Source of the DNA: Vicugna vicugna
Taxonomy: Eukaryota
DNA length: 64,000 bases
Direction: 5' to 3'
NCBI GenBank assembly: GCA_013265495.1
Contig: MU057989.1
Coordinates: forward strand, 1,939,513 to 2,003,512
The notes under the pieces are model-generated. The model had not been told where the DNA came from and did no database searches. It saw only the letters and a list, made by a program, of their open reading frames with translations. A program made the translations under genes and the position numbers. Every line of letters begins with the position of its first letter. Within the stretch, counting starts at the first letter, position 1. This document shows, piece by piece, positions 6,180-59,569 of the stretch.

Positions 6180-8350
6180 ACCTACTGATTGCCAGTGCAC
6201 ACTCCTTCCTTGCTCTTTCTTGATCTCCCTGCAGCAGATTGTTGACTTCCGCCCGCTAGAAACAAGTCCTTGTTCTTGGTGTTAGTGAGCCACAGTCCCT
6301 TGGTATTCTTCCTAAGTGTTGATTGGCTCTATATTGGTCTCCACTGAATATTCACTGACCTGCCTACCCTGCGGGGTGTAAGTGGTTGATAAAATCGGTG
6401 GCATCCCCTCTGGAAGCCTGAAGCTTGTAAACACACATCCCAATTCCTGCTGTGAGGGCATGGGGTGGGATGGGTGGGAGCAACAGGCTCAAGGAGCAAA
6501 AAGAGGTCCTGTGGACAAGGAGGGAGAGGGACATGAGATGAAGAGGTGACCAGGGCCAAACTATGCAAGGACTTGTACATCCTGGAAGGGAGTTCAGCTT
6601 TTGTTTTGAGAAGCCAGGTTTGAATGAGAGAATGATGGGTGGCTTCGTATTCTAAAAAGTTACTCTGACTTCTGTGGATATTGGAAAGGCAAGTATGACA
6701 ACAGTTCAGGTGAAGGATGGTGGCAGCTTCGGTGGGGGTCCGGTAAGGGCCTGAGGGACATATCCATCTGTGTGCCAGGGGTGTGAGGATGGAGTCAAAG
6801 AAGGCTCCCAGTTTCCTAGATTGAGACCCGTGTGCATTGACTGTGCCCTTTTCTCCAATAGGAAGGGCTGATGACCATATTTTGAGACATGAATTAAGAG
6901 GCCGGCTCTGGATATGCTGAGTTAGACATTCTTGTGATGTGTGAATGTATCAAGTACATAGTCGGATGTGGGTTTGGAGTTCAGAGATGCGGGTGGGCTG
7001 CCCGTAAACATAACACATGGCATTGACAGTGGATGAGACCACGTAGGTAGAGAGTATAGATTCCTTTTTCATTAATTTCATCAATAGTCATCAGTCATCT
7101 GATGTGCCACGTGCGCTCGGTATTTGGGATCTGTTAATGAACAAATAGATGAAGTCCTTCACCTTTCCGAAGTTGATAATCACGTAAGGGCAGACGTGTG
7201 ATGAGTAACAAGTGGAAAACATAGTTATCTTGTAGAGTAGAAAGTAGAAAGTCCTGGGGTGAAAGAGTATAGCAAAGTCAGGGGGATCAGGGGTGCCAGA
7301 CATGGTACTGGTGGGGGAGATGGCAGTGTTAAGTAGAGTGGACCCCATTAGAGGTTGGGGAGGAGGGAAGGAGACCGCTAGTCTTGCCAGGAGTGGTCAG
7401 TGTCTGCAGGGGTGCTGACATCCAGAATGCTTTGGTCCTTGGTTTGTTTTGTGGGGAGTGGGGTGAGTAGCTGTGACTTAGCAGTTTCAGTGGGTCATGA
7501 GCACGAGAAGGGGAGGAGGGTGCAGGGATGCGGTGGAGACAGCATGTGTGGGCAACTGTTTGGAAAGTGCTGGCTGTGAGGAAGTAGGAAGATGGGTGAG
7601 TGTGGGGAGGTTGCAAATGCAGGGTTGTGGGAGGGGAATCTGAGAATGAGAGATCCTGGAATGACCCAGCGGGGAAGGGAGGCTGCTGACATGGGGAGGG
7701 AGCACATGGAGGGGTGGGTGCTTGACAAGGCAGAGGGAAGGAACCTGGAGACCATGGGCAGGGGTGGCCTTCGGAAGGGGGACAGGCACTTCCCTGGTGG
7801 TAGCAGGATGAGAGGAGAAGATAGTGGATGAAAGGTGGGTGAGTTTGTAGATTCAGTAATAAGATTTTTTTTCTAGTGGAGGCACTGGGGCTTGAACCCA
7901 GGACCTCACGCATGCTAAGCATGCACCCTGCCGCTGAGCTATACCCTCCCAACTCTGCTATAAGACATGAGGGCACGCTCGGATTTTCTCCTTGGCGCTC
8001 TGGTCCTGCCACTGTGGCCCCGTCCCGAAGTCTTGTCCAGAAGGGGCTTTGACTCCAGCTTGTACACCCCAAAACCCAAAGCCAGGGTCTCTTCCCTAGA
8101 GGCCTTCCCAGAGTTTCTGACCTGCCCAGCGGTTTAAGTCTACCTGGGTGTCCCACAGTCACTGAGAGATCAGGGCGTCTGAAATGAAGTTCATCTCGGC
8201 CCGCCTTTCTTTGTCCTGCTCACTCTGAATTGCAGAACAGAATCGGCATCGACCACTTCTCAGGTCAGGACTCATGCCTTCTTATCTCCCAGATTCAGCC
8301 CATCTCCCAGCTGTTACCTTGACCCTCTGATTGCTTTCACTTCTCTACCT
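6180..8350. mobile_element. L2-like degenerate fragments
   Basis: Purine-rich degenerate sequence typical of L2; boundaries uncertain. Confidence 0.45.
7864..7950 (-). mobile_element. vic-1-like SINE
   Basis: SINE core. Confidence 0.8.
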
Positions 8351-8489
8351 GTGCCTCTTTTGTGTTTTTTTAAATTGAAGTCTAGTCAGTTACAATGCTG
8401 TGTCAGTTTCTGGTGTACAGCATAATGGTTGCAGTCATACCGACACATGCGTATATTCCTTTTCATATTCTTTTTCATTATAAGTTACT

Positions 8490-8632
8490 GTTTTGGGGTT
8501 TTTTGGGAGGGAGAGATAATTAGATTTATTTATTCATTAATTTTTTTCTTTTAATGGAGGTACTGGGGCTTGAACCTAGGACCTCATTCATGCTAAGCAT
8601 GCACTCTACCACTGAGCTATACCCTCCCCCAC
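8490..8632 (-). mobile_element. vic-1-like SINE
   Basis: SINE core and tail. Confidence 0.85.
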
Positions 8633-8649
8633 CATGTGTGCCTTTTTAA

Positions 8650-9200
8650 AAGAAATAGAAACTACATATCTGGGGTATACAGCGTGATGACTTGATATAC
8701 ATAAACACAGTGAAGTGATTACCATGGTCAAGCTGATTGACACGCCTCCTCACATAGTTACCTTTTGGTGTGTGTGGTGAGGGCACCTGAAACCCATCCT
8801 CTTGGCACATTTCCCGAATTCAGTACAGTAGCATTAACAGCAGTCGTCATGCTGTACCTTAGATCTCTAGACCTCCTCGGCCCGCTTAACTGTTAACTCT
8901 GGTCTCTCTGATGACCCTCTCCCTGCTTCCCCCACCTCTCTGCCCCCGTAACCACCCTCTACACTTGCTCCTATGGATTCAACTTTTTTAGATTCGATGT
9001 ATAAGTGACAGCATTTGCCTTTCTGTGTCTGGCTTATTTCACTTGACATCACATCCTCCAAGTCCATCCACATCACAAGTGGCAGGTTTTGTTCCTTGTG
9101 AAAGCAGAACAATATCCCTCATCTGTGAATGCCACGGCCTCTTTGCCTGTTCATCCTCCGTGGGCACGAGGTTGTCTCTGTGTCTTGGCTGTTGCAGACA
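8650..9200 (-). mobile_element. Old L1 3' end fragment
   Basis: ttctgtgtctggcttatttcact...tccatcca motifs. Confidence 0.65.
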
Positions 9201-28427: not shown

Positions 28428-28566
28428 CCTGCTCTTCCGGTGCGCCCCACTCTGTGCACATACTCTTCGATGTTGCGGGGAAAATCGTAATTATACACAT
28501 GTGTGATATCGTGGACATCGAGACCACGAGATGCTAAATCAGTAGCGATCAGTATTCTCACTTTTC
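28428..28566 (-). CDS. DDX43: DDX43 exon 14 (motifs V, VI)
   Basis: [18 protein letters not shown]...[12 protein letters not shown]; 139 nt, AG/GT bounded. Confidence 0.97.
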
Positions 28567-28661
28567 CTAAAGAGTAGAGACACATTGTGGTACAAACCAA
28601 CCCAAGACACATCCAATCAGGTGAACGATTATTGCTTTCAGTATTAAAACGCTTGAGGTAA

Positions 28662-28875
28662 GGGGAAGGTAGAGCTCAGTGGCAAAGCACATGCCTAGCA
28701 AGCATGAGGTCCTGGGTTCCATCCCCAGTGCTGCTGTTAAAAATAATAAATGAATAAAGAAATGAAGCCAATTATCTCCTCCCACCACCAAAGCCAAATA
28801 AATAAAAATTTTAAAATAAAATAAATAAATAAATAGAATCTAATTAACTCCCCCTACCATAAATAAATACATAAA
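28662..28875 (+). mobile_element. vic-1-like SINE with duplicated tail
   Basis: ggggaaggtagagctcagtggcaaagc...ggttccatccccag. Confidence 0.8.
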
Positions 28876-29204
28876 AACACATAAGATAGTGAAAATGGAA
28901 AAGGGGTGCTTGTAAGTCTTAACTGCTGGCAGGTTACAACACAACAGATGACCACACTTCTAACGGTCCCTGGTCACCTGAACCACGTCAAAGGTAGGTG
29001 CTCTCCGGTAAATTATCCCCCACTGCAAATTACTACCTTGACATCCAGGTTTAAACATTAGCCTGAGATAGTTCTGAGAATCTGATTAATATTTAGAACT
29101 CTTAACAGCCGTTCTGGGATCTGCCCACCAAGGACAGATCTTAGAAATGGGTTTCATGAAAAGCTGCCATCACTCAGGCAAGCCCAGCACAGTATATATA
29201 TTTT

Positions 29205-29344
29205 TTAAGTTTCTTTTTTTTAATTAAAAAAAATTTTTTTTAATTTTTGGAGGGGAGAGGTAATTAGGTTTATTTACTTATTTATTTTTAATGGAGGCAC
29301 TGGGGACTGAACCCAGGACCTTGTGCGTGCTATACCCTCCCCCC
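29205..29344 (-). mobile_element. vic-1-like SINE (internal deletion)
   Basis: ggaggtaattagg...gaacccaggacc...ctataccctcc. Confidence 0.8.
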
Positions 29345-29386
29345 ACAGTATACTTTTAAGCTGCGATATTAATTGTACAAATGTAC

Positions 29387-29496
29387 CTGTTTTAAAGTTT
29401 TTTAATGCTCTCTCTCGATCGCTCTGTTCTCTGTTGCCGTGCAGAGACTCTACAGATATGTGTCGGATACCCAGGTCACTTGACAAATGGTCAGCG
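29387..29496 (-). CDS. DDX43: DDX43 exon 13
   Basis: ADHLSSDLGIRHISVESLHGNREQSDRERALKNFKT G; 110 nt. Confidence 0.96.
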
Positions 29497-29697
29497 CTGA
29501 AGCCAAAGATAAAGTCAGGGATCTAAGTGATTATTCTCATACCACCATCAGTTCATCAGTCTTATTTCCATTAACAAAAGCCTGAAGTCACAATACTGTT
29601 AAGACATATACAACCCCATTTGAAATAAGCATGCAAATAGAAACAATGCTCCAGCCAAACCCAGGGCTGATGATGGGAACGTGAAGAAGATACCCAC

Positions 29698-29825
29698 ACA
29701 GCTTTCCGGCTAACAAATACGATGACTTTGTCTCTAGGAGACATGCTCTCTATGAAAGTCTGGATGTGCGACCGTTTCTCATCTTCTGTGGTGACAATTA
29801 TATTTTGCTTCACAGTACTTACAGC
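29698..29825 (-). CDS. DDX43: DDX43 exon 12 (motif IV)
   Basis: AVSTVKQNIIVTTEDEKR...DKVIVFVSRKAV; 128 nt. Confidence 0.96.
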
Positions 29826-30547
29826 CTAAAGGGTTCAAAGATCATAGGACATCAACATTAATGGTCAGTTCAAAATCTACCTTATTTCTGTCTTGGTTAA
29901 ATGTTTTCAGAAACTGCTAGCAGGAAAAATGGCAGATCCTTGCAAAAGTGACCTGTTTCTATTCAAGGATTTACAGCTCAGCCTCTTGCTTTTTACTCAT
30001 CCAAGCTAAGCTGCAAACTCTTGAATGCCTGGCAGTGTTGAAAGCAACCTTTGTAGGAAAAGGAATAACCCTGGTTTGAGGCCAAGGTTATGAAAACGGT
30101 CACCATGAATTATGGGTACACCCTTAGAGTGAAGGAAGATGATCAACTTATGACAGAAAGAACTTGCATTCAGTAAATATTTTGACAACTTCACGCAAAA
30201 TTTCAAAAGATCATTGGTACCATTTTTTGACCCAGAGATAAAACAGATTTTAGTAGCGTTTAATGAAAAGAACCAAGCATTCACCCTGTCTTTTCTGTGA
30301 AATCTAATGAAATAAGCCTAGGCAATGATCCATGATTAATTACTAGTGAGGAAGTAAAAAAGGTCAGTTTTCATGAATGATTAGTGGAAAGGCCATTATG
30401 ATCATGAATGATTAATGAAATTAATGGATTAATTTCAATTATGAAGTGAAAAGCCAGAGAACTATATTTATAATGGCCAAAACATGAAATAATGAACATT
30501 TCCATAGTTAATGAGACATAAACAATAGCAATAAAAAACAAGCTTAC

Positions 30548-30635
30548 AACTAGATCCAAAGTCCCAACATATACAATCATGGGCTCTTTCAAATAAGATT
30601 GTGCAAGTCTCCGGACAGCATATGGCCAAGTTGCG
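30548..30635 (-). CDS. DDX43: DDX43 exon 11 (motif III SAT)
   Basis: SATWPYAVRRLAQSYLKEPMIVYVGTLDLV; 88 nt. Confidence 0.96.
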
Positions 30636-31484
30636 CTGGGAATAAAACATGATACACGAACGTTAAACATTTATTATAAATCTAACATTACTAAGATTCC
30701 CTAAGAATGCTATGAACGAAATTACCTGTGAAAGACAAAATTCAGGTTTTTAATGAGGCAGATTTTACAATGTATGCTTTCACAATGAATTGCTCAACTA
30801 GAATGAAACTACTAGTTTTAACCTTTAAAGAAGTTTAATGAATAGGTTTGTCAAGCACAGGTGAAGGAGATCTACACCTTTCTAATCTATGGAAAGGCAA
30901 AATGAGTTCAGGTTTTAGATTTCTCTTGGCCTTTAAAAAGGGCAAAAAAAACCCCAAAAAAACCCTAAACAAACAAACAAAACAAACACCCCAGTATTTT
31001 TCATACACTATCAGCACGTAAAACCAAGGGCTTATGCCAAACAAAAATGTGTTAACTGTACTGATGAATGGGTATGTAAATTCAGGTGTTTTCTTCACCC
31101 ATATATGACGGAAGTAACCACCTTCTGCATAAAGATGTCAAGTTTAGAGAAAACAAAGTAAGTTTAGTGTATTTCCTCAATCACATACTGTTCTTTTTTA
31201 TGCTAATGACAAAGGACACAAACCCAGGACAAAATGGTCTACAGATCACCCCGCATTTAAATAACAATCATTGCTGCCTCTGCTTTATTTTGGGCTAAGA
31301 AGTATTTGGTTAATATTTACCTCTAAGGACAGGTGATCACTTTTTCAAAGCTAAGACTCCCTAGAAAGTCAACCCTGCATGTTCTTATAAAAATCTAATT
31401 TATACTCCAGGGGTCACTGTCACACTGTTAGACTGCTTACACTAAGTGATGCCATCTTTCACCTACGACGTCAGAATACTTTCA

Positions 31485-31814
<330 letters not shown>

Positions 31815-32184
31815 CTAAATCTATTTATGAAAAAATATTTAAATGCCCAAATATTCATGTGGAATTTTGGGACTTATCTGCATTTTCCATATTTACTAAG
31901 AACACTAAAAATGGGATTATCTGAAAATCCTTATTTTAACAAACCAGAGGGAATGGGAAACACTTCTAGGATTTCAGACCGTCATGAAATGGACAGCCAT
32001 TCTCCACCCCTCCCCTTGTCTGAAGGTGGCCGACAGCAATGGCTAAATGAGCCATGCTGCTAATTTACCTCCTAAGGTGTATTTAGCACGTCAGAAATAT
32101 CTTTTCTCTTGACATGAAGAAAAAAGACAATGAAATTTCAGTACACGGACAGCCATTCCGAAGGACTGATCTGACTTGAATTCA

Positions 32185-32382
<198 letters not shown>

Positions 32383-32761
32383 TCACGATCAGGTTAAGGA
32401 ATATCCCATCACATGTCAAAATCCCAACCGACCTACGCATTTTGGATGTAATAACAAAATAAAGTATGTAAATCAAAAGAGGTATCAGGAGCCTTGGGCA
32501 GTACCAGCCCCTCTCTGAGAACTGTCCACAACCATCACCCCACAACGGCGTGTCCTACAAAGAGTCACGTTTCCATCCTTGTTATCTGACCTGACCGCCC
32601 CCCCAACCCCGACCCTGGCTACGGTTGATGTGGACCAGGGGTAACACCTGACCCAGGTTCAGCCAATCAGATTCTCATGATGTGTGAAAAGTAATGGGGA
32701 GAACGTGTAAGGCTACAAATGATGAAAATGCTGCTGCCGGAACGGCCAAAGAGATGACTTA

Positions 32762-32986
<225 letters not shown>

Positions 32987-33245
32987 CTACAGAAAAACAG
33001 CCAAACAGGAAAATCCTAGGGCTCAGATACAACCTTCCATTTGACACAGCCAGTGCTTTCCTGCATCAAGCATCCTCTCACAGGAATTGTATCGGAAATG
33101 GTAATTTAAACAATTTGTTTCACATGTTTCACTATAAGACTTTAATCCTACGTACTGCTTCCTAAAAATGTTCGGTTTATACTCCACCCGCACAATATAT
33201 GAATCTATTCAACCCCTAAAGAGAACCCGGAAGTAGAAATTCTTA

Positions 33246-33581
<336 letters not shown>

Positions 33582-33605
33582 TTAAGTTTAAAGAAAACAC
33601 ACCTG

Positions 33606-33735
33606 GAGGAGGAGGGTATAGCTGAGTGGTAGAGTGTGTGCCTAGCATGAACAAGGTCCTGGGTTCAATCCCCAGTATCTCCATCGGAATAAACAAATAA
33701 ACCTAATTACTTCCCCCCAAACAAAAAAACAACAA
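33606..33735 (+). mobile_element. vic-1-like SINE
   Basis: gagggtatagctgagtggtagag...acctaattac tail. Confidence 0.85.
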
Positions 33736-33743
33736 AACACTTA

Positions 33744-33944
<201 letters not shown>

Positions 33945-34185
33945 TTAAGGGAAATAGAACAAGGATTAGTGGCTTTGGTCATTGTACTCCCCAAGCAAGC
34001 AGTTCTTCCCAACATTAGTCCAGGTTATATCTAGAAATTCAACTGCCAACTGATAAAGATGTAAGAAGAAATGTGAGCGAGCCCATCTTTTTCTAAACAG
34101 AATAGTTCTAGAGTAAAAAACTGCAATGTACCTATGAATGGGCCGAGGAAAATTTCACAGAAAGGTTAACAATAGACCCTGAGGT

Positions 34186-34330
34186 GGGGAGGGTGCAGCT
34201 CAAGCAGCAGAGTGCATACTTGGCATGCCCGAGGCCCTGGGTTCAATCCCTGGCACCTCCTCTAAAAAATAAAATAAGTAAACCTAATTACCTCCCCCCT
34301 GCCAAACAAACAAACAAACAAACAAATAAA
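34186..34330 (+). mobile_element. vic-1-like SINE
   Basis: SINE head and tail. Confidence 0.8.
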
Positions 34331-35067
34331 AAGTCTTAGGGGAAAAAAATGGATTTTAAAAATTAAAAAAAAAAAGAATGGAGCCTAAAAATTATGCACT
34401 TCATGAATCGAAGTCAGATTTGGCAAATACCTGATGGCCCACAGTGTTTCACACACATTTCTAAAAATTAATCCTCAACAGTCCTTGGAAGTGGGAATTA
34501 TTCTCATTTGACAGGTGATCTTTAGTTACTTGTCCAAGGTCTGAGCTGAGCCCTACCCCTAACCTGGAACAACTGTTCTATCTGCTATACCACTATCTTA
34601 GTTTTATAACAGATATTAATAGAAAAAAATATTGCCTTAGGACCTATTTAATTCCAGATAATGAAGACTGAAGAGGAAGACATTATTCTGATATTCAGAT
34701 CAGGTCAATTTCTTATGATTTGCAACAGCGGCAGAAATAATTCTCTAAAATGGTTGTCTAATACAGCAGGCACTAACCACACTGCCCTTCATATTAAAAA
34801 TTCAGTTCCTCATTTATACTAGCTGTATTTCAAGTGTTCAGTGGCTATATGGATAGTAACGCCTCTATTTGACTCCAATATAGCTCATTTTCCCTCTTTG
34901 CCAAAAGTTCTATTGGACAGCAATGTTCTGAAATATATTATGTAGGATGCAACCAAATTTTCATTTGAATATGGAAGCTATAGCCTCAAATGCAATCATT
35001 TCAAATTTTTTCCTAAAGAGTTAATAGCATACCTATATAAACACTAACAAGTAATAAGACTACTCAC

Positions 35068-35149
35068 CTCCAATTGTCTACCTGTTCCTGTGACATTGAA
35101 CTTGTCGTTTCTGACTCCACGTAAAAGTTTTTCTTAATTGAAGGTAAAC
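35068..35149 (-). CDS. DDX43: DDX43 exon 5
   Basis: GLPSIKKNFYVESETTSSMSQEQVDNWR; 82 nt. Confidence 0.95.
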
Positions 35150-35744
35150 CTGGGACAGAGACGAAAATTCAACCTTGGATGAATAATGAGAATTTACATT
35201 TCATTGACACGAATTCCACGCTTGGCCAGCCAGGTTTACACCAGCCTCTAAGAACTCTCCCTTTTTGGTTTGTCTTCCAGTTACATTGTTCACCCAAGAA
35301 AGAGACCTTTAATAATGAAATATGAAAGAAACCACGCTTCACAGGTGAGTGATGATTCTTCTCTATAGCTGACTGACTTCTTCTTTGAAGGTCTATCCTG
35401 TTACTATTTAGGAATAAAATATTTCTCCTATTCCATCCTCTGAAGCTACTTTGTTTTCTTCTTTAAATGCTTATCATAACTCCTCCAAACTTAAATCCTT
35501 TTTCTGGACCCCCCGTCCCAAATCTCCCCACATACATGTGGTTGTGATGCCCCTGGACAGGCTGACCATCGCAGTGGAATTAACCACTGTTAACATCTGT
35601 CAGAGTTTAGTGCTCACTTTTTAACTTTAAATCAGTGATGTTGTATTGCTGCCTCATTTTGATCACCAGATTAGCACTTGAACTTACTCTGAAATTCAAA
35701 CTCTGAATTTCTTCTCAAGAACTGTATGATTTTACTTAAAATTC

Positions 35745-35907
35745 TTTTCTTTTATTTATTTTTAAATTTGTATTTATTCCTTTTTGAGGGAGGAAGGTAA
35801 TTAGGTTTTAATTTATGTATTTATTTATTTTAATGGAGGTACTGGAGAGTGAACTCAGGACCTTGTGGATGCTAAGCACACACTCTACCACTGAGCTACA
35901 CCCTCCC
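35745..35907 (-). mobile_element. vic-1-like SINE
   Basis: SINE core and tail. Confidence 0.8.
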
Positions 35908-36326
35908 TTCTGTGTGATCTTATCAAATGTTTTTCTCTTCTTATTTTGCCATCGTTGGCCAGGACACTCCAAGATCAATTTTTGCTTAGTCCACAGCTAG
36001 ATGTTAACTCATGGTTGGCAGGTTTACTCACTTCATTTCCCTTTTGGCCCAATTTTCTTTGTATTTTCATTAAACTTGTGCAGTGAGTTACCTCAAATAA
36101 GACAAGGTATAAATAAACTTAACATTTTAACTTTCCATTTATAACAAAAATCGCAACACAGACAATATCGAAATTACCATGCCTCAGGGACTAATTCCAG
36201 CGTTTCAAGTTCTACTGTCATTTTGCATATAGATTTCATTCCTAAAAGCAACACACTACTTAGAGGCTAAAAAACCTCAGTTAAGAGAAACACCACCACC
36301 TGTACATGTCGGGATGCAGCACTAAC

Positions 36327-36452
36327 CTGCCCACTTCTTTTCGCTCCATTTCCAAATATTTTCTCGCAAGTTATCCCAATCAATCAACTTCTGATCTCTT
36401 GAAACATCCTTCCTTGCGTCTTTTCCACCAGAAGTTTGGATAGCAGCAACAT
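36327..36452 (-). CDS. DDX43: DDX43 exon 4
   Basis: DVAAIQTSGGKDARKDVSRDQKLIDWDNLRENIWKWSEKKWA; 126 nt, phase 1-1. Confidence 0.9.
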
Positions 36453-37248
36453 CTGCTTCCAAACAAACAATTAGTTTCCAAACAAATCCTACCAGTCCAA
36501 GGCCAAAACTATTTTTACTATTTTCTGTTTTTAATAACCCAACAATAATGCTTTAAATAGAAAATTCAGGAATTCAGTCCAACAGTGCCATGATAATTCT
36601 GGTCAGGATTTGTCAAGTTATCTACTTCAGATTTCTGAAATGCAAAAAAAATTTACTGGGTAAGTTAAGTAGCATGAGAGCCTAGTGTCTGCTAATAAGT
36701 CACACACCGTTTAATCTTTACAACAACGCTGTGCGGCAGACGCTGCCCCAGGTAAATGGAAGAAGTCTTAGAGCTTTTCAGAGGTTCCTTCCCGAGAAAC
36801 ACCGAAAGGCGATGCTGCCATCTGATCCAATGCTTTTTGCTTCTGGAAATATTTCAATACGGCTTTTTCCCTAGTCCAAGCAGATCTGAGAGTTTTTGAA
36901 AAATATCAAATAAGTAGTCAGTTTTCAAAGTCAGGCACATTCCAGGGAAGTGACCACTAGGCAGGAGACCACGACTAATCCTTGCTCTACCATCAACAGT
37001 GAAATGTCTTAAAAGGTTGTTTTCTTTTTACTCAAAAGTAAAGTTCCTAGGCTGAACCACAGAGGTTAAGTGTTTTGATTTGAGGAAAAACATGCTAGGA
37101 TTTCATAGGAAAAAAAATTCTGTTACAGACAAGATTTAATGAAAGCAATCCAAAGCTTTGCTGTCAGGAAAAGCAGCTATAAAATGGCTTATAACATGAC
37201 TGAAACATTTTAAACTTTACAGGGCTTTAGTGGGTAAAAATTACTTAC

Positions 37249-37375
37249 CAACTCTGCGTTCTGATTTGTATTCTTCTTGTTTTTTAACAAGATCATCTAT
37301 CACCGTTTTCGCTTTGCTCTGCATTGCCTTGGTGCCAAAAATCCTTACTTCTGCCTCAGGGTACCCTTTTATTAC
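37249..37375 (-). CDS. DDX43: DDX43 exon 3 (KH domain C-terminal half)
   Basis: VIKGYPEAEVRIFGTKAMQSKAKTVIDDLVKKQEEYKSERRV; 127 nt. Confidence 0.92.
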
Positions 37376-37654
37376 CTAGATACAAGGGGAAAAATAGGTG
37401 AGACTGAAGTTCCTTCACCCTTCTCCCCTCCAACAATCACTCGACTTCAAACAGTATAAAAGTATAAAGTAAATATAGTATTGCTATCAATCAGCGTCTA
37501 AGATATTATGAATGGATGACAGTTTAGGTGAGTTAAGAAGTATGAAAAGCTTTGGTAACTTACCTAAGTTACCACAGCATGTCAGCAACTGAACAGAGAC
37601 TAGAGTTAGGAATGAACTATGCTTTTTAAAGATTTAAGAACACAGATCACTTAC

Positions 37655-37710
37655 CTGTATTTTGGTGGATGTTGTGCTCTGAATCTCATTTATTTTTGAT
37701 CCGCCACGGC
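37655..37710 (-). CDS. DDX43: DDX43 exon 2 (KH GxxG loop)
   Basis: GRGGSKINEIQSTTSTKIQ; 56 nt. Confidence 0.93.
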
Positions 37711-38089
37711 CTGTTTTTAAAAATAAAGGAATCTTTAAAAATAAATAAATAAAAATAAAGGAATAAAAAAAAAAGCAACTTGAAATCAATAAGGGGAAAT
37801 TTACCTACTTTGCTCAAAGAACCTTCTCTAGTTCCTTCCCAAATCATCCAAACAAAGGCTCCTAGGGTTCAGTAATCACTTTCAGTTTGGAAAAAAGAAA
37901 GCATTTCTATTTCAAATTTTGGTGGATGGTAGGAGGCTCCTTTCCCAGAGAAGGTACTAAGGAGCCATCATCAGCCCAAGCAAAGACAAGACTAATTGGA
38001 CCCAAAGTGTTGGCAAGAATGTGGAGAAACTGGAACCACTGCACGTTACAACTCAATAAAAAAGTTCCAGTTACAAAGGGTCAAAGTTC

Positions 38090-38880
38090 TTGAATAGATC
38101 TTTCTTTAAAGATATATTTATGTTCAACGGGTATATATGAAAAGATGGCGAAGTCAGAGAAATGCAAATCAAAACCACAGTGCGGTATCACCTTATGCCC
38201 GTTACCATGGCTAGCATCAAAAAGACAAGGGGTAACAAGTGTTGGTGAGGATGTGGAGAAAGGGAACCCATATGCACTGTGGGTGGCAATGAAAATTAGT
38301 GTGGCCGCTATTTAAACATTATGGAGGTTCCTTTGAAAAGTAAAAATAAAGTTACCATATGATCCAGCAATTCCACTCCTGGGAATTTATGCACAAGAAT
38401 TGGAATTAGGATCTCCAAAAGATACCTACACTTCCATATTCATTTCACCATTATTCACAGTAGCTAAGAAGTGGAAATTACCTAATTATCTGTCAACAGA
38501 AGATTGGATGAAGAAAATGTGGTATATACATACAATGGACGTTTTCAGCCTTAAAAGGAAATCCTGCCATTTGTGACAACATAGATGAACCTTGAGGACA
38601 TTACACTTGCCATTTGTGACAACATAGATAAACCTTGAAGACATTACACTAAGTGAAATAAGCCAATCACAAAAAAACAGTGGGCCACTTCTATCAGGTG
38701 TTTAATGTAGTCAAACTTACAGAACCAAAGTGGAACGGTGGTTGCTAGGGATGGGGGAATGGGGAAATGAGTAGTTCAGTAGGTAGATTCTGTCATGCAT
38801 GATGAGAATCTTCTAGAGATCTACTACACAACGTTGTTCTTACAGTCAACAATACTGTACCATACACTGTACGCTTAAAA
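38090..38880 (+). mobile_element. Old L1 ORF2-end/3'UTR fragment
   Basis: gaaatgcaaatcaaaaccacag...gatccagcaattccactcctggg. Confidence 0.85.
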
Positions 38881-38918
38881 TCATCGTCTACTACAAGTGG
38901 CAAACCTAAATTCCAATC

Positions 38919-39047
38919 TTTTTTTTGGAGGGGGAGGTGATTAGGTTCATTTACTTATTACTATTTATTTTAACGGAGGTACTGGGGATTGAACCCAGGA
39001 CCTTGCGCATGCTAAGCACACGCTCTATCACTGAGCCAAGCCCTCCC
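38919..39047 (-). mobile_element. vic-1-like SINE
   Basis: SINE core; flanked by ctaaattccaatc direct repeats (TSD). Confidence 0.9.
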
Positions 39048-39479
39048 CTCTAAATTCCAATCATTTTAAAATGCTTTTCAAAAATGAATTTGTAAGACTC
39101 AAGATATACTAAGAAAAACGATGCTGTTTTCCAGCAGATAAATCATATTCAAGTTAAAGAAACTAAATGCAAGATATGGGTAATGTTCTGAGCAGCCTTT
39201 AATATCCTTCATCTTCTTATCTTTGGTTAATGGCTCTAACCCGTGCTCCAGTCGACTGACTTCAGCACTCCTCTCTTGTTCATCTTGGGGTAAGCTGCCA
39301 AAGATCTGATCTTTCATCCCAAAGATTTCATAAGTCTAAGAGTCTGTTCTCCCAAAACATCGTGTATATAAAATATCAAAAGCTACACTGAACGACACCA
39401 TTCTAGCACCAGAAGGTATTAGAAGCACTACAAGAAGAGAGCTGAGTCTCTTCGGGTGGCAGATGATTGGAGGGGAGGA

Positions 39480-40120
39480 GAGTGGGCGTGGACGCTGGGC
39501 CCAGTCCCCGCCCACCTCCCCGGCCAGGCCTGCGTGCCCACCCTCCGGCTCTCACCGATCACCGCGCCGACCCAGTCGTTCTTCAACCTGAAGGACAGTG
39601 GCGGTTCCTGACAACCAGCGACCCCAGGCTGCTGAAGGCCACAGGGGTCCCTCCAGCCGCCGACTCTGCCGCGCCTATGGCCTCCTCGCCCTCTCGGGTT
39701 CGTCTCCTCCGCCGACCTCCTTTCCAGAGCCCGAGACACTGCCTCGCCCCGCCCGGAAGCAACGACCCAAGAGGAGGCGTTGGCGCCTGCTTCCTGCCTG
39801 GACATGGTACCGGGAAGAAGATCCGGCACGTCCGACGTCGTTGCTGCTGCAGCCCTCGTCCGACCGACGTCGGGCTAGTCCACTAGGGCAACCACGCAGC
39901 TGCAAATCGAGGGCTGCGTGAGCCCCGCCCCGCCCCGCCCGCCCAGCCACGCGTCCATTGGTGGACGAGGCGCCATGGGCGGGGCCTGCGGGGCTCGCCC
40001 AATCCGCGCCATTTCTGCAGCGCGCAGGTTGGCGGAGACCGTGCGCCGCCCTTGCTCTTCCCCGGGGCTTTTGCACTTTGCCGCTCTGAACTCCTTTCTG
40101 TACCTACTTCCCGGGGCTCC
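39480..40120 (-). promoter_or_regulatory. DDX43: DDX43 CpG-island promoter
   Basis: CpG-rich; tandem GC boxes ~39923-39944; CCAAT ~39999. Confidence 0.8.
39556..39805 (-). CDS. DDX43: DDX43 (HAGE) DEAD-box helicase exon 1
   Basis: ATG 39805: MSRQEAGANASSWVVASGR...PLSFRLKNDWVGAVI G|gtgag; 250 nt; total spliced CDS 1932 nt, 643 aa. Confidence 0.95.
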
Positions 40121-41928: not shown

Positions 41929-42553
41929 TGAGACAGGAAGGAAGGGGGCAGGGCACAGCCATTAAAGAAATGACACAGAAATTAGCACCAAGATGGCAGA
42001 AAAGTCAGCTCCCAATAGACCTGGAGGCCCAAGATGGCAGGAGAGCTGACCTTCAGTGGACCTTGAGCTTCATTATACACATTGTAATGTATTAGCATGG
42101 TGAATGACACACATACAGGTGCCACTACAGTTCCAAGGCTAACCATGGAAGGTCAAAGAGAGGGCATGGCCCAATTCCTGGGAATCCCGGCCCCTTCCTC
42201 AAAGTAGTTGGACTAATCCTGTCACTTCTTAGCATATAAAAACCAGCAACACCACACCTCATGGCCTCTCTTGCTCCCTCACCTTCCGAGATGGCCCACA
42301 CTCTGTATATGGAGTGTGTATCTCCTTTTCTTTAAACTAAACACCCAAGCCCATACCTCTTGGCCTTTCTCTCGCCTTCTGAGATGGCCTGCTCTCTCTC
42401 TATGGAGTGTACATCTCTTTAAATAAATCTGCTTTTAATCAACCACGGCTCACTCTTGAATTCTTTCCTTACTTGGTGGGTCACATCCCAGGGACTCGCC
42501 TGGGGCCTGGGACATGGCCACTCTCTCATGCCCCACATTTTTTTCCTGTATCA
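41929..42553 (+). mobile_element. ERV1-class solo LTR (625 bp)
   Basis: TG...CA ends; 4-bp TSD GATA/GATC; TATAAAA ~42235; AATAAA ~42422. Confidence 0.85.
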
Positions 42554-48794: not shown

Positions 48795-49589
48795 ATGGAC
48801 ATTTGGGTGGTTTTCATTTTGAATGTCATGAAAAAATGCTATGAACATTTGCTTTTCAGACTTTGTGTTTTCATTTGTCTTGGGTGGATATCTAGGACTT
48901 TCCCAAGGCGGCAACACCTTCCAGCATCCGTACCAGCAATGTATGCGTTTCTGTTTGAGGGGTGGGCCGGGGGCAGAAAGTTGACAGAGCCCGTCTGAAA
49001 GCCCCGTCCCAGGGGACCCTGGAGGACTTGGCAACAAGGCTTTTCCTCTGATGTTTAATTCTCTTGCCCAATGTTCATTTTACTTTACTTTTTCTTAATC
49101 ATCAGCTCTTGGTGTAATGCAAAATTTCAACCATGAAAAATTACATTCCAGAAGTCATTTATGCCCTGTTTTACTTTGTCTTGGAGTTGGGGACTGCCCC
49201 TTTTCTAAGAGCATATGTTTACTTCTTGTTCCTTTATTTCCTCCCGTCTTCAAGGATTGAAAGCATTTAACACAGGACTCTAGAGTGTAAGTATCTCATT
49301 GGTTACATGTCATTAGCATTGTATATACAATATTATTTGAACTTTAAAGTTTATACCCAAACTATTCATCAACTGAGAGAAGATTAAAAATATTAAACAT
49401 GAAAAGCCTCAAAAACATAGTAGATTGAAACATAGAGCATTCATCAAGCACCATGCCAAAATCCCTCTAAATGACAGTAAAGATTGTTGAAAGACAAAAA
49501 TACACAAGGATAAAGAATGGGTGAGAATAAGGCAGCAACAGGAAAAAAAAATACAAGAAGCTGGAAAGCAGATGAAAGTGCGCTATGCG

Positions 49590-49781
49590 GGCTGCCTTTC
49601 TGCCCGCCCCCCTCCCCCCCGGAGACAGCCCACACTGTCTGTGGAGTGGGCACCTATTTTCACTTTAACCTGAGCACCCAGCCCCCACACCTCGTGGTCT
49701 TTCTCTTGCCTTTTGGAACAGCCTACATTCTATACAGTATGTATCTCTCTAAATAAATCAATCTTTACTAAAAAAAAAAAA
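49590..49781 (+). mobile_element. Poly(A)-tailed retrocopy of LTR R region (copy A)
   Basis: Homologous to ~42285-42440; AATAAA 49752; A12 tail; 15-bp TSD. Confidence 0.8.
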
Positions 49782-50529
49782 GTGGGCTATGTGATTTAGA
49801 CCAGAGGAAGCTGAAAAGGAAGCCCTGAGGAGGGCTGCTCCTGCTGTAGAAGCCCCCTCAGCCTGAGGAATGAGAGGCAGCACGCGCCTCTGAAGCGGGG
49901 ACGAGGGGAGAAGGGTTAGCTGAAAGTCTACGTAAGACGCAGAAAGACTGCCCCCCACCTTCAATCTGTTCTCGGCCCCCACCGAAAGACCATCTGAAAA
50001 AGACAGAACCAGGAAGATTCTGGACTCTGGGCTCACAGTGCTGTAAGAGCAAAGCGGAGCAAGAGCAGGCAAGACAGTGCAAGGCCTCTGCCTCGGCCGG
50101 CTGCGGACCCCCGGGACATGGGCGGGGAAGTGGACAGTCCTTCCCGGGGAAACGGATTCGTTCAAGAGAACAAAACTCCGATGCTGACACTGGGGAGGAA
50201 GAGCCTGGCTTCTGGTGAGATCAGCAACCCTTTGGAACAAGACCCCGCTCTGGAAATGGGAGAGGGGTGGGCTGTGCTGCTGGTGGGCCAGTAAACTAAG
50301 TGAGTTTGCCCTCCAGGTGACCTTTCTGTAGCTAAAGTTTACAGACTATTGAGATAGATTATTTCACACTGAAGTCCTGGAGTCAGAAGGCTAACCCCTG
50401 CCTTACAAATCTGCCAGTCAAGACTTTTAGAGATCAACTCTTAAAGGACTAGCCATATATAGTGAGCAGATTTTCTAAGAAAATCTCTGACACAAAAGAA
50501 AACCCCATATAACATGGACAAGTTAAGGA

Positions 50530-54165: not shown

Positions 54166-55175
54166 ATAGTGTTTGTTGTGCTTTGTAACATTTTTCATTG
54201 TATAGAGATTTCATCTTAAGAACTGAAGTCAAAAGAAGTGAAGTCGTGAAGAAAAAGGCTTCTCAATGGGAAATTACAAAACCAATTCACTCACATACTT
54301 CACTGACTGAACTCAAATCCCCTCAGACTGGCTCCTCCAGAGTTAAGCAGAGGAAATGAAAACAGGCCACCCACTGTCTTCTTGGTAGTATTTTTCTTTT
54401 AAATTTTATAGGGTGCAGAGTGTTTAAATACCTTGCGTTTGGTCACACAGCTAGAAGATGTTGGAGTAAGTATTCAAATCATGCCTCTCTCCCCCACCAG
54501 AGTCCAGGCAGGAAGCCTTGGAGGTATAAAGTGACAAAACTGATTCCTCCTGGCAAATTCTGCTAAATCCTGAAAAGCTTGCAATTCTGTTCTGACGCTG
54601 GCATGGATCAACTAATAAAATTCAAGGCTTGTCAAATGCAGAAAACTCAGTATGGGGTTTCCTCATGAAGTAAAACCCCAAATGGCTATACTTCCAAAAT
54701 AAAACTAAAGCAGAAGTAAACGTTGCCAGGCAGATGGAAAGGGCAAAGGAAAGTTTCTTGACCTTGTCTTCCTCAAGTATGTGTGGACCTAATAATCAAC
54801 TACCACAAACCAGCCTTGTGTCTTATTCATGCTACATGTAGGAGTCTGAAAAATGTCAGGGAGATAATTTGAAGAGGACTCAAGTCGGAGATGTATCCTT
54901 AAGAGAATGGCTCAAGCTAAAAATGATCAGTTTCTAAAAAGATGAAATTATATCCCTACATTGTGCCCAATTAAAAAAAATTAACCCCAGATGATTCAAG
55001 GATTTAAACATTAGGATAGAAACGCCAGCATTCTTAGCGGAAAGGAGAGTGGACGTCTCTAGGCCTCAGGGTGGGGAAGGATTTCTTAAGCAGGACAAGG
55101 AGTGCACTTACCATGAAGGCTGATGAATCTGACTATATTAAAATTAAGAATTTTATTCATCAAAAGACACCTTGT

Positions 55176-55560
55176 GGGAGGGTATAGCTCAGTGGTAGAG
55201 TGTGTGCTTAGCATGCACAAGGTTCTGGGTTCAATTCTCAGTACCTCCATTAAAAGATAAATAAATACCCCACTTGTTGGCATGTGAAGCCACCGAGCCC
55301 ATAAAAACTGGCAACACCATGCCTCGCGGCCTCTCTCACTCCCTCGTCTTCCAAGATGGCCCGCACTCTGTCTCTGGAGTGTGTATCTACCTTTACTTTA
55401 ACCTGCGCACCCAACCCCCACACCTCATGGCCTTTCTCTTGCCTTCTGAAACAGCCTGCAGTCTATGTAGTATGTATCTCTCTAAATCTATCTTTAATTA
55501 AAAAAAGATAAATAAATAAATAAATAAACTCAATGACCTCCCCCCCAAAACAAACAAAAG
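55176..55560 (+). mobile_element. vic-1-like SINE interrupted by an LTR retrocopy
   Basis: Head 55176-55250; tail resumes after 55503; caaaagacacctt flanks. Confidence 0.85.
55268..55502 (+). mobile_element. Retrocopy of LTR U3-R 3' end (copy B)
   Basis: Homologous to ~42220-42440 and to copy A; 16-bp TSD AAAAGATAAATAAATA. Confidence 0.8.
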
Positions 55561-56149
55561 ACACCTTAAAGAAGGTGAAAAGCAATTTAAACTGAAGATA
55601 TTCACAGTACATACAATTGAAAAAAAATTAGTAAGAGACTGACTTTATATCCCCAAGACTTTTTTTTACAATATGCATGCATTAGTATGTTGATTTTAAC
55701 ATTAAATTGAAGAAATAAAAATATCCAGTAAAGCTAGATCCATTATCTCCTCTCAGATAATTGTTGGAGCCTAGATGTAATGAGGGAATTCAGTACATTA
55801 AAATTATCCCTTTTATGTAAATGACTGAAACTCTCCATTTAAAGGATTTTTTAAAAATCATAACTAATTTTAAGAGCAAAACTGTTTGCATATCAGATGC
55901 CATTTACTCTAAAACAACTGCCAAAGAATATTTCTAGAAACGCACTGGAGAAAGTGTAAGAACATACATGGGTGAGACACACCGACTTCAGGACATGATT
56001 CCCTGCGGGGAGGGAAAAGAAAGACGCTTTAGTGATAGGCATTTTAAAGGAGAGAGGAGTGAGGCAAATGTGGGAAAATGCTAACATTTTATTAAGTGAG
56101 CGGGTCGTGGTACACAACTTTTCTGAATGTGTGAAATCTTTCATAGTTT

Positions 56150-56285: not shown

Positions 56286-56955
56286 CATAGTTTAAGTTCT
56301 TTAACATTAAGAACACTGGGAAGAAGTGTGCATCAACACTAGTTGTCTCAGGATGCTGGACACAAACAGGATTTGTCTACACTGGCTCGTTTGCTAGAAT
56401 GACCAACTCTAACATTTATATTTTAAAACACGACACATCTATTCAAATGATTTTGATTTGGTAACAAACCAGAGAATCAGAAGGCAGATCACAGGTTGCA
56501 GAAGAGACAAGCTGTAGACTCCATGAGCCTGTGCTCGGCCTGCCCCACCCCAACCTGCAGAAACCTGTTGTTTTTCTCTGTGTTCCCTTTTATCTGTGTG
56601 CCAGTGCCCTGTCTTTACTGCCTCCGTAATCTTTTAATATCTAAAAAGGGTAGTTGCTCTGTCATTCTAACTTTCAGAATTTGGGAGAATGATAGCTATG
56701 TACTTGTTGATAAGAGCTTGTATCACGCACCAGGCCCTGTGCCAAGCACCTAAATAGGATGGTTGGAGCATAAGGAACTTGCTGAGTCCCAAAGCCAGGC
56801 CATGGGGCTGGGTGAGATTTGAACCACACATTGATTCCAGGATCTTACCTCTATGCTATACTTTCCCCATGTGCGTTTATTTTTCTCCACAGCTGAATTT
56901 AGGCTCCTTTTCATTGTTTTTAATTTTTGTAATTTTTAATTTTAATTTTTTTTCT

Positions 56956-57144
56956 TTAGGGTTAGGGTTAGCGTTAGGAGTAGGTGTTAGGGCTAGGGTT
57001 AGGGCTAAGGGTTTAGGTTAGGCTTCATGTTAGGGTTAGGGTTAGGGCTTGGGCTAGGTTTAAGGCTAGGGTTAGGGTAAGGGTTTAGCGTTAGCGTGAG
57101 AGTTAGGGTTAGGGTTAGGGTTTAGCATTTAGGGGTAGGGTTAG
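56956..57144 (+). repeat. Interstitial telomeric sequence, degenerate (TTAGGG)n, ~31 units
   Basis: ttagggttagggttagcgttagg...gggttag. Confidence 0.95.
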
Positions 57145-59569
57145 TCTCATTGTCTTTATCTTTTTTAAGAGGAATTAGAATACCCTTCCTAATTTGTGAA
57201 GAATCCACAGTATTTGCTATCTGTGAGGGACAAGACAACTTGTTTTCCCTAACAAGTTGCTAAAATAGAAATATCTACTAGTGCCACGCTCGATATAAGA
57301 ATATCACTGTTGATTTTTCTGACAATAAACATACTTACATCCTCCATTTTTTAATACTATTTTTTTATTTTTACATTTTTTATTGATTCATAATCATTTT
57401 ACAGTGTTGTGTTACATCCTCCATTTTTGAAGAGTAAGGCGACATACAAAGTATTAAAGTACTCAAAAAATCTCACTGCCCATACATTCTCTTCGAGTAG
57501 CTTTCCATTGCACTAAATACTTTTGTATAATTTTAGTATTTTGTTGATTCATACAAAGTATTCTGTTCAGACCAAAGACATGCCCATCCACAGTGTAAAA
57601 AGATTCCTCAAACCCTACAAAGGGAACAGATCCTTTCAGCCAGCACCCAAAGAACGGCCATGACCAGCACTTTTTTCTGACTTTTTTCAGCACTGCTTTT
57701 CTGACTTAAATATAAATGGAATCATTGTGAGATTTATCCATGTTGCCAGCAGTTATAGTTCCACTCTCTGAATAAATCATAATTTAGTTTTCCATTCTGT
57801 TGATGTACATTTTAGTTGTTTCCCATTTAGACCTGCAATGAATCGGGCTACTGTGAAAATCCCTGTACGTGACTTCAGTGCATACATATATGCATTTCCA
57901 CTGAGTATTTGTCTACACTGGAATTGCTGAGTTAGAGGGTGTACGTAAAGTCACATTGCCAAGGTGCCTGAATCGATTTACCTTCCTTTCAGCAGGGTGT
58001 GGGACTTCCAGTTGCTCTGCATCTTTGTCAATGGTCGATTTTTATTTTAGAGACTAGGGATTAGCACTATTGCACTGCACTTCTAAAAAATACAATCACT
58101 TAACTGGTTACACAATATAAAATTGGGAGTGTACATTTCCTTCTTTGGTAAATTTGCAAGTTGTGCCATCATCACCACAAACCAATTTTTGAATATTTCC
58201 GTCACTTCAGTAAGTTCCCTTTTGCCTGTTTGCAGTCAGTCATCTCTACTGTCTCCAGCCCCAGGCAATCAGCCTGCTTTCAGTCTCCGCAAAGTTGTCT
58301 TTTCTGAACATCTAATTTAAGTAGAATAATATAAAGTGCCATCTTTTGCATCTGGCTTCTTTATCTAGTTGGAGTATCTCTGCTTTTTGATTGGAGTATT
58401 TAGCCCATTCTACTTTAATGTAAGTATCGTAAGATTGGATTTCTGTCTGCCATTTTGCTTTATTTCCTATCATGTCTTTTTTCTTTTCCTCCTTCATTAT
58501 TTTGTGTTGGATAAATTTTTGTATACCATTTTGACTCCTATTTTTAAAGTGATTTTTTTTTCCTCGGGGTTGCCTTAGGGATGATAGAAATCTTAACTCA
58601 TTACATGCTGTTTCTGATTAATGGAAAGGAGGGAAGGAGGAAAAAGAAACAGTTGAATAAATGGAAACACTAGGTTCTTGGATAGCAGAGTCCAGTGTTG
58701 CATGGATGTGGTCAGCTCTTCCCAGAACTCAATGCAATTTCAGTTATAATCACAACTGCTTTTTTAGGGGCTGAGGCTGTAGGTTGAGAGTCTTCCTTAA
58801 AGTCCGATTATACAGATGCTTCAGAAGGACTCGGGAAGGCTGTAAATAAGGTTTTTCCTAGATGTCTAGTGAAAAATTCCGAGATAAATAGTGCAAATGT
58901 GTATTAACTAAACTGAAGTACAACAGCCTGTCACATATGCTCCACAGCGAGACTCTCAAGATTTCCCAGAGAATCCATAAACCTCTGAAACTTTTCTCTG
59001 ATACCTTCAGTGAGTGAAGAGTGAGCCTATTCAAAGACACTGTCCACATTGAATTATTTGCTGCCAACCAGCTTCCCCTGCTCCCAAAGTGTGCAGGCAG
59101 GAGTCACTGTCCTCACGCTGTCTGTGGCTTTCTCTCTCCCAGGCTTACAGTTCCTCACGGTTAGATCTAGGTTATCTATTTTCGGCAAAAATACTAGATA
59201 AATCATATTGTGTCTTTCTCAGTGCTTCACGTCACGTGGCATGGGGTCTGTTTTTGTCCCACTCAGTGAGATTGTTAAAGGCCTTGTTTTGATCAAAAGT
59301 GTGGAGTCGAGAAATTTTGGTGAAGGAAGTAGTGCCAACCTGGTGTAACTGAAATGGAGCGGCAGGAAGACCTCGGACAGGCTATCCCGTGTGCTCCGTA
59401 GCTGAACTTCAAAAGTTTTCCACAGATTCTAGCAATGATGAAACTTTGATGACTCTGGTCAGCCTATTCAAAAGCTGTTCAGACTGACCTCTTTACTAGC
59501 CCTTGATCATTTTACCTGCAAAAATGTACAAACGAGAGTAGAGTTGCTGTTTCCAGACTTGTGTAGTTT

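Follow-up and report, generated by a model that had tools for sequence, protein, structure and literature searches.

A LINE-1-type retrocopy of the 3′ end of an LTR transcript, nested in a camelid tRNA-derived SINE and probably one of a multi-source population

Results

The window, by which we mean the whole 64,000-nucleotide stretch of DNA analyzed here, contains 23 tRNA-Ala-derived SINE heads, 17 of them on the minus strand. ARAGORN labels 10 of these 23 heads as tRNA genes, making them a source of false tRNA annotation. On the minus strand, 28450-39805 contains the exons of a gene for a DDX43/DDX53-type DEAD-box helicase (recognized by Pfam DEAD, with DDX53 as the best match in PDB), whose likely first ATG is at 39805; from its intron-rich structure we infer that the gene is DDX43. 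A solo LTR of 625 bp (41929-42553, plus strand) is found approximately 2.1 kb upstream of this ATG on the opposite strand, and no provirus was detected in the 64-kb window. Two shorter plus-strand elements related to the solo LTR, which we call copy A (49575-49791, including its target-site duplications [TSDs]) and copy B (55268-55502), follow further along, and searches of the window with blastn and nhmmer found no relatives of copy B beyond copy A and the solo LTR. A degenerate interstitial (TTAGGG)n array occupies 56956-57144, preceded by a T-rich tract (total span, 56911-57156), and near-identical 10-mers stand on either side, at 56911 and at 57147. On the minus strand the array reads as (CCCTAA)n with an A-rich tail, and it is possibly a retroposed C-rich telomeric RNA.

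Copy B interrupts the A-rich linker of one of the SINEs (55174-55554, plus strand), whose tRNA-Ala head was matched at 55178-55249 by both ARAGORN and Rfam, and which carries its own TSD of 13 nt (55161-55173 and 55555-55567, 13/13 identical). When the insert and one of its TSDs were removed, an ordinary SINE remained that could be aligned end to end with 17 other copies in the window (of the 22 other heads, 17 were used, for the most part full-length ones with better scores). With copy B splitting an otherwise normal SINE at a clean empty site, the proposal in an earlier note on this DNA that the insertion postdates the SINE is upheld. The description of the host as young did not hold: of the 75 positions in its head, 6 deviate from the majority of the local copies (18 copies; range, 5 to 16), which places it among the least diverged copies, yet it is not recent. 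We presume the host to be vic-1-like, the name being taken from the SINEBase text (PMC3531059). It would resemble vic-1 as described there in being a simple SINE of tRNA origin in a genome of camelid type, and its role here is that of a landing site only.

The insert measures 235 nt and is flanked on both sides by the exact 16-nt TSD AAAAGATAAATAAATA (55252-55267 and 55503-55518, 16/16 identical). The left flank before the TSD reads ...CTCCATT, and the junction at 55247-55256 (CCATT/AAAAG) conforms to the L1 endonuclease site TT/AAAA. The 16-mer occurs only at the two TSD positions when both strands of the 64-kb window are searched, and it is the sole exact run of at least 16 nt among 15.9 million position pairs with spacings of 150 to 399 nt. 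The duplication reported in the earlier note is thus exact and unique in the window, and its TT/AAAA site is confirmed. A G inside the left TSD is rare in the linkers of the other SINE copies, so the change to G is likely older than the insertion. The lengths of the TSDs of both copies (16/16 identical in copy B and 12/13 in copy A) fall within the variable range of approximately 7 to 20 nt of retrocopies generated by L1-mediated target-primed reverse transcription.

Alignment to the solo LTR assigns the first part of the insert (55268-55326, plus strand) to the last ~59 nt of U3, including a TATA-like box (55300-55307) that begins 32 nt below the 5′ end of the copy. The remainder (55327-55499), separated from U3 at a predicted border, corresponds to the putative R region, which comprises two tandem units of ~95 nt each and stops at the poly(A) site of the LTR. 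The AATAAA hexamer, present in copy A and the solo LTR, is missing from copy B, which has a 4-nt gap relative to copy A at this position. Although copy B terminates where the LTR has its poly(A) site, only 3 A's (55500-55502) lie outside the TSD, or 7 when the first four letters of the TSD are counted, compared with 9 in copy A. The anatomy of the insert is that of a TATA box plus a poly(A) end, and ARAGORN and Rfam gave no tRNA or Rfam match in it that would correspond to the pol III promoter required by the strict definition of a SINE (PMC3531059, in the part available). We are highly confident that copy B was inserted by L1 as a genuine, well-formed nested retrocopy of the end of an LTR transcript. 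Taken alone, it shows no sign of function and is likely dead.

The solo LTR has the TG...CA ends and 4-bp TSD (3/4 identical) by which the ERV1 class is recognized. Its TATA-like box (42235) and AATAAA (42422) are ~190 nt (about 187 nt) apart, and compared with copy B it is missing ~17 nt directly above the TATA box. Copy A spans 49588-49778 without its TSDs (49575-49587 and 49779-49791, 12/13 identical) and consists of a body at 49588-49769, with AATAAA at 49752, and a 9-nt A tail. Its 5′ end lies ~26 to 28 nt below the start of the TATA-like box, the distance at which a cap site is expected, and thus about at the predicted cap site of the LTR. Compared with both the solo LTR and copy B, the 5′ part of copy A (49588-49630) is markedly C-rich: of the 12 differences there that are private to copy A, 7 are T to C; this is either a subfamily trait or the result of GC-biased change.

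Copy B is 79% identical to the solo LTR and 83% identical to copy A by blastn. The 3′ ends of copies A and B coincide at ~13 nt below the AATAAA of the solo LTR, whose last ~112 nt are absent from both, and their 5′ ends differ, copy B reaching above the TATA box into U3. These observations agree with the earlier note, as does the status of the two copies as independent L1-type insertions of an LTR transcript end.

To place these copies in a genomic context, we compared the region 55246-55520 at 80% likeness with the whole-genome contigs of four out of 24 runs, which represent two organisms and four studies. The comparison was made on 275 bases with 55493-55520 left out, so that the poly(A) ends of other loci fall outside its view; runs X21 to X24, which contained next to none of the query words, were excluded. 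Between 2,394 and 2,982 contigs matched per run in all four runs. Relative to the depth of long unique contigs, the TATA box reached ~2,200 to 2,800 copy-equivalents and the peak 7,100 to 9,000, where the single-copy depths of runs X4 and X14 are rough estimates and a summed depth is no copy number. In each run, 67 to 74 contigs continued before 55269 with letters like those of the U3 of the solo LTR, and judging from these letters, the pool includes full LTRs. The suggestion in the earlier note of a high-copy repeat behind copies A and B is therefore well founded, with the reservation that its thousands of copy-equivalents include full LTRs. Exact-pattern scans of viral contigs, metagenome contigs, and prokaryote genomes were blank, but these need not hold camelid DNA and were given no weight.

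The positions at which the matching pieces start bear on how many of them are retrocopies. Among the 32 pieces listed, which are the longest of 10,911, all 6 located in contigs longer than 1 kb run from a start at 55327-55339 to an end at 55479-55487 and represent ~4 distinct loci that start near the cap site. Short contigs contain the other 26, of which 25 begin no later than 55302, in the TATA region or above it; none of the listed pieces spans the whole compared region. This pattern is apparently that expected of cap-site copies in unique flanks, with the caveat that 55316-55355 is variable and could stop local alignments of full LTRs near 55327. The depth at the junction of the two tandem units was 1.2 to 1.6 times that at the TATA box, an excess of roughly 640 to 1,440 copy-equivalents. 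The larger, 2- to 3.5-fold excess of depth in R over the TATA box was rejected as a copy count, because cross-mapping between the tandem units and the contribution of additional LTR subfamilies confound it. Some contigs jump back by approximately one unit, which suggests that LTR variants differ in their number of ~95-nt tandem units.

Finding two copies in 64 kb would have a probability of 0.002 if there were 2,000 copies and of 0.03 if there were 9,000. At ~2,000 copies this value calls for a local hot spot, for selection of the window, or for many more copies, and local enrichment or window selection contributes to the pairing seen here. One could regard copies A and B as sporadic processed copies, two of only a few dozen genome-wide, that landed together in an L1-accessible region by a germline-type gene and form no family. 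The SINE density of the window and its selection for this very feature fit such a view, as does the fact that no further poly(A) end was observed, in a contig view that stops before 55493; the tandem units can also partly explain the excess in depth. Against it stand the junction excess and the pieces listed for run X1, 4 of 8 of which start near the cap site in contigs of 1.3 to 7 kb. We consider a purely sporadic origin unlikely and it likely that there are hundreds of such R-region retrocopies in the genome, our rough guess being hundreds to ~1,500.

We then compared copies A and B with the solo LTR and the contig pool with respect to their source. In 128 core columns of the three-way alignment, copies A and B agree against the solo LTR in 22, copy B and the solo LTR against copy A in 14, and copy A and the solo LTR against copy B in only 1, with all three differing in 4. 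Both shared motifs quoted in the earlier note are present in copies A and B, and its observation that the two share variants absent from the local solo LTR is confirmed by the 22 columns versus 1, which also group them apart from it. The solo LTR is related to them but does not belong to their source subfamily. At 55402 and 55450, the two positions with data, its letters account for 11 to 14% of the depth, and as minority states they make the states shared by copies A and B look like LTR-subfamily traits.

The earlier note had gone further and traced both copies to one master transcript with a 3′ LTR at its end, which would imply one non-autonomous family whose members are truncated to different extents at the 5′ end. 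The 22 shared columns, the common 3′ end, and the extension of copy B above the TATA box are all in keeping with this idea. However, copies A and B are only 85% identical in the core (19 of 128 columns differ) and ~50% identical in the 38 columns 5′ of it (19 of 38 differ, a value that depends on the alignment). Moreover, the letters of copy A at 55352, 55374, 55386, and 55458, where copy B carries other letters, make up 43 to 48%, 34 to 40%, 27 to 32%, and 42 to 48% of the depth, respectively, in all four runs, in a pool that is biased to B-like copies and in which some positions receive the other tandem unit. Copy B itself differs from more than 90% of the depth at at least four positions (55374, 55391, 55406, and 55461 among the rows listed, with 25 further rows). 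Copy A, like the ~4 other loci, begins near the cap site, and a copy starting there needs no 3′ LTR. Contigs combining a B-like R with continuing U3 also exist (e.g., records 9 and 25), so that the states shared by copies A and B occur in longer LTR copies too. The claim of one master is thus not borne out, and we regard such an origin as improbable. Judged by these sequence differences, the simplest reading would be that the retrocopies come from at least two source subfamilies and the local solo LTR from a third.

Finally, it is very improbable that copy B belongs to a composite SINE+LTR element that was amplified, or that it is a decayed piece of LTR framed by a chance repeat. Its TSD does lie in low-complexity AAAT sequence and its tail is short, but the 16-mer has no occurrence in the window other than the two TSDs, removal of the insert restores a normal SINE, and the depth on the SINE side is only ~4 copy-equivalents, as opposed to thousands inside the insert. 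With ~4 copy-equivalents, the SINE and the LTR piece were not amplified together, and a composite family was rejected on this ground.

Discussion

We consider it probable that copy B represents the U3 end and R of an old retroviral LTR, made by LINE-1 from a polyadenylated LTR RNA, and that it is one of a multi-source population. The parent is a high-copy LTR family carrying a TATA box and a poly(A) signal separated by the spacing seen in the solo LTR. Its pol II transcripts would stop at the LTR poly(A) signal, leaving out U5. Transcripts of the copy A type would start at the cap site of the LTR itself, and those of the copy B type should start further upstream, because copy B includes the TATA box; they may derive from a provirus or from read-through into the LTR. 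The source RNA of copy B may have been either proviral or a read-through of a solo LTR, and copy B, being too short, holds no internal sequence. L1 ORF2p would then have nicked the TT/AAAA site, primed on the tail, and halted early, with only the last 232 nt copied from a longer RNA; this step is suggested by the TSD, the site, and the tail. Several source LTRs belonging to at least two subfamilies likely did so, giving rise to dispersed R-region retrocopies, probably in the hundreds.

Elements of this kind have been described in other mammals. According to the available portions of the reports on tarsier TINEs (PMC5059674; PMC5322556), these are LTR-derived, mobilized by L1, and cover the part of the LTR between its TATA box and its own poly(A) signal; the copies number 29,041 for TINE1/2, mostly full length, and 1,668 for TINE3. 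A reviewer comment in the accessible text of PMC3183009 ascribes TINE1 to polyadenylation at a solitary LTR. The TINE anatomy, a short pol II transcript from TATA box to poly(A) signal spread by L1, fits copy A and the cap-site loci, and a 5′ end at the cap site below the TATA box is seen in copy A and apparently in the ~4 other loci. Copy B is likewise LTR-derived, ends at the poly(A) signal, and lacks U5, but it includes the TATA box and hence is not a cap-site copy. The host and the LTR are also different from those of the tarsier, where the TATA box and the signal are, in the parts of the reports available, ~80 nt apart compared with ~187 nt here; a tandem duplication lies inside the element here, and the copy number is probably lower than 29,041. 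The host being of camelid type, we do not claim membership in TINE1/2/3 proper, whose sources are the tarsier LTR77_TS or MER83B-like LTRs.

Copy B itself resembles the HERV-W processed pseudogenes, which, in the available part of PMC5016936, have a U3-R 3′ end, poly(A), a TT/AAAA site, and TSDs of 5 to 15 bp, and which include short 5′-truncated members. A U3-R 3′ end without U5, the TT/AAAA site, and the TSD were all found in copy B. It differs in that the HERV-W copies, as far as that text covers them, usually keep internal viral sequence, whereas copy B keeps ~59 nt of U3 only, and in that its TSD of 16 nt is slightly longer than the quoted range. By analogy, copy B would work like a heavily truncated HERV-W processed pseudogene and copy A like a TINE. 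This kind of element has already been described, in tarsiers and humans, and copy B likely belongs to a modest, multi-source camelid population of it.

The parent camelid LTR probably has a catalogue name, as camelid LTR families are catalogued. The Repbase name ALPINE1/2 may simply denote the tRNA SINE; there were no occurrences of ALPINE in the available portions of the camelid, SINE, and TINE texts and two supplement sets searched, and literature searches for it yielded no relevant entry among the rows listed. Alpaca LTR entries exist in Repbase, e.g., LTR2_Vpa, named in the accessible text of PMC6726744. No such family was found in the available parts of the camelid repeat surveys PMC8605555, PMC6675863 (with its supplement), PMC6726744, and PMC12849490. 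The literature searched gave no camelid description of such copies, and Repbase, Dfam, subscription papers, or supplements may hold one.

It is a tentative and somewhat doubtful possibility that camelids independently evolved a TINE equivalent, with at least a thousand uncatalogued R-region retroposons that derive from pol II transcripts of several solo-LTR subfamilies and were spread by L1 alongside vic-1. If true, annotations would conceal such an equivalent under the label "LTR fragments", and camelids would be a second mammalian lineage with an amplification of this kind. If a sizeable family were confirmed, the TINE route, in which an LTR promoter and the LTR's own poly(A) signal are combined with L1, would have recurred in another mammalian order, and the LTR features that turn a solo LTR into a retroposon source would become testable. 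The copies would also provide presence/absence markers for camelids, and counts of solo LTRs could prove to be inflated by retrocopies.
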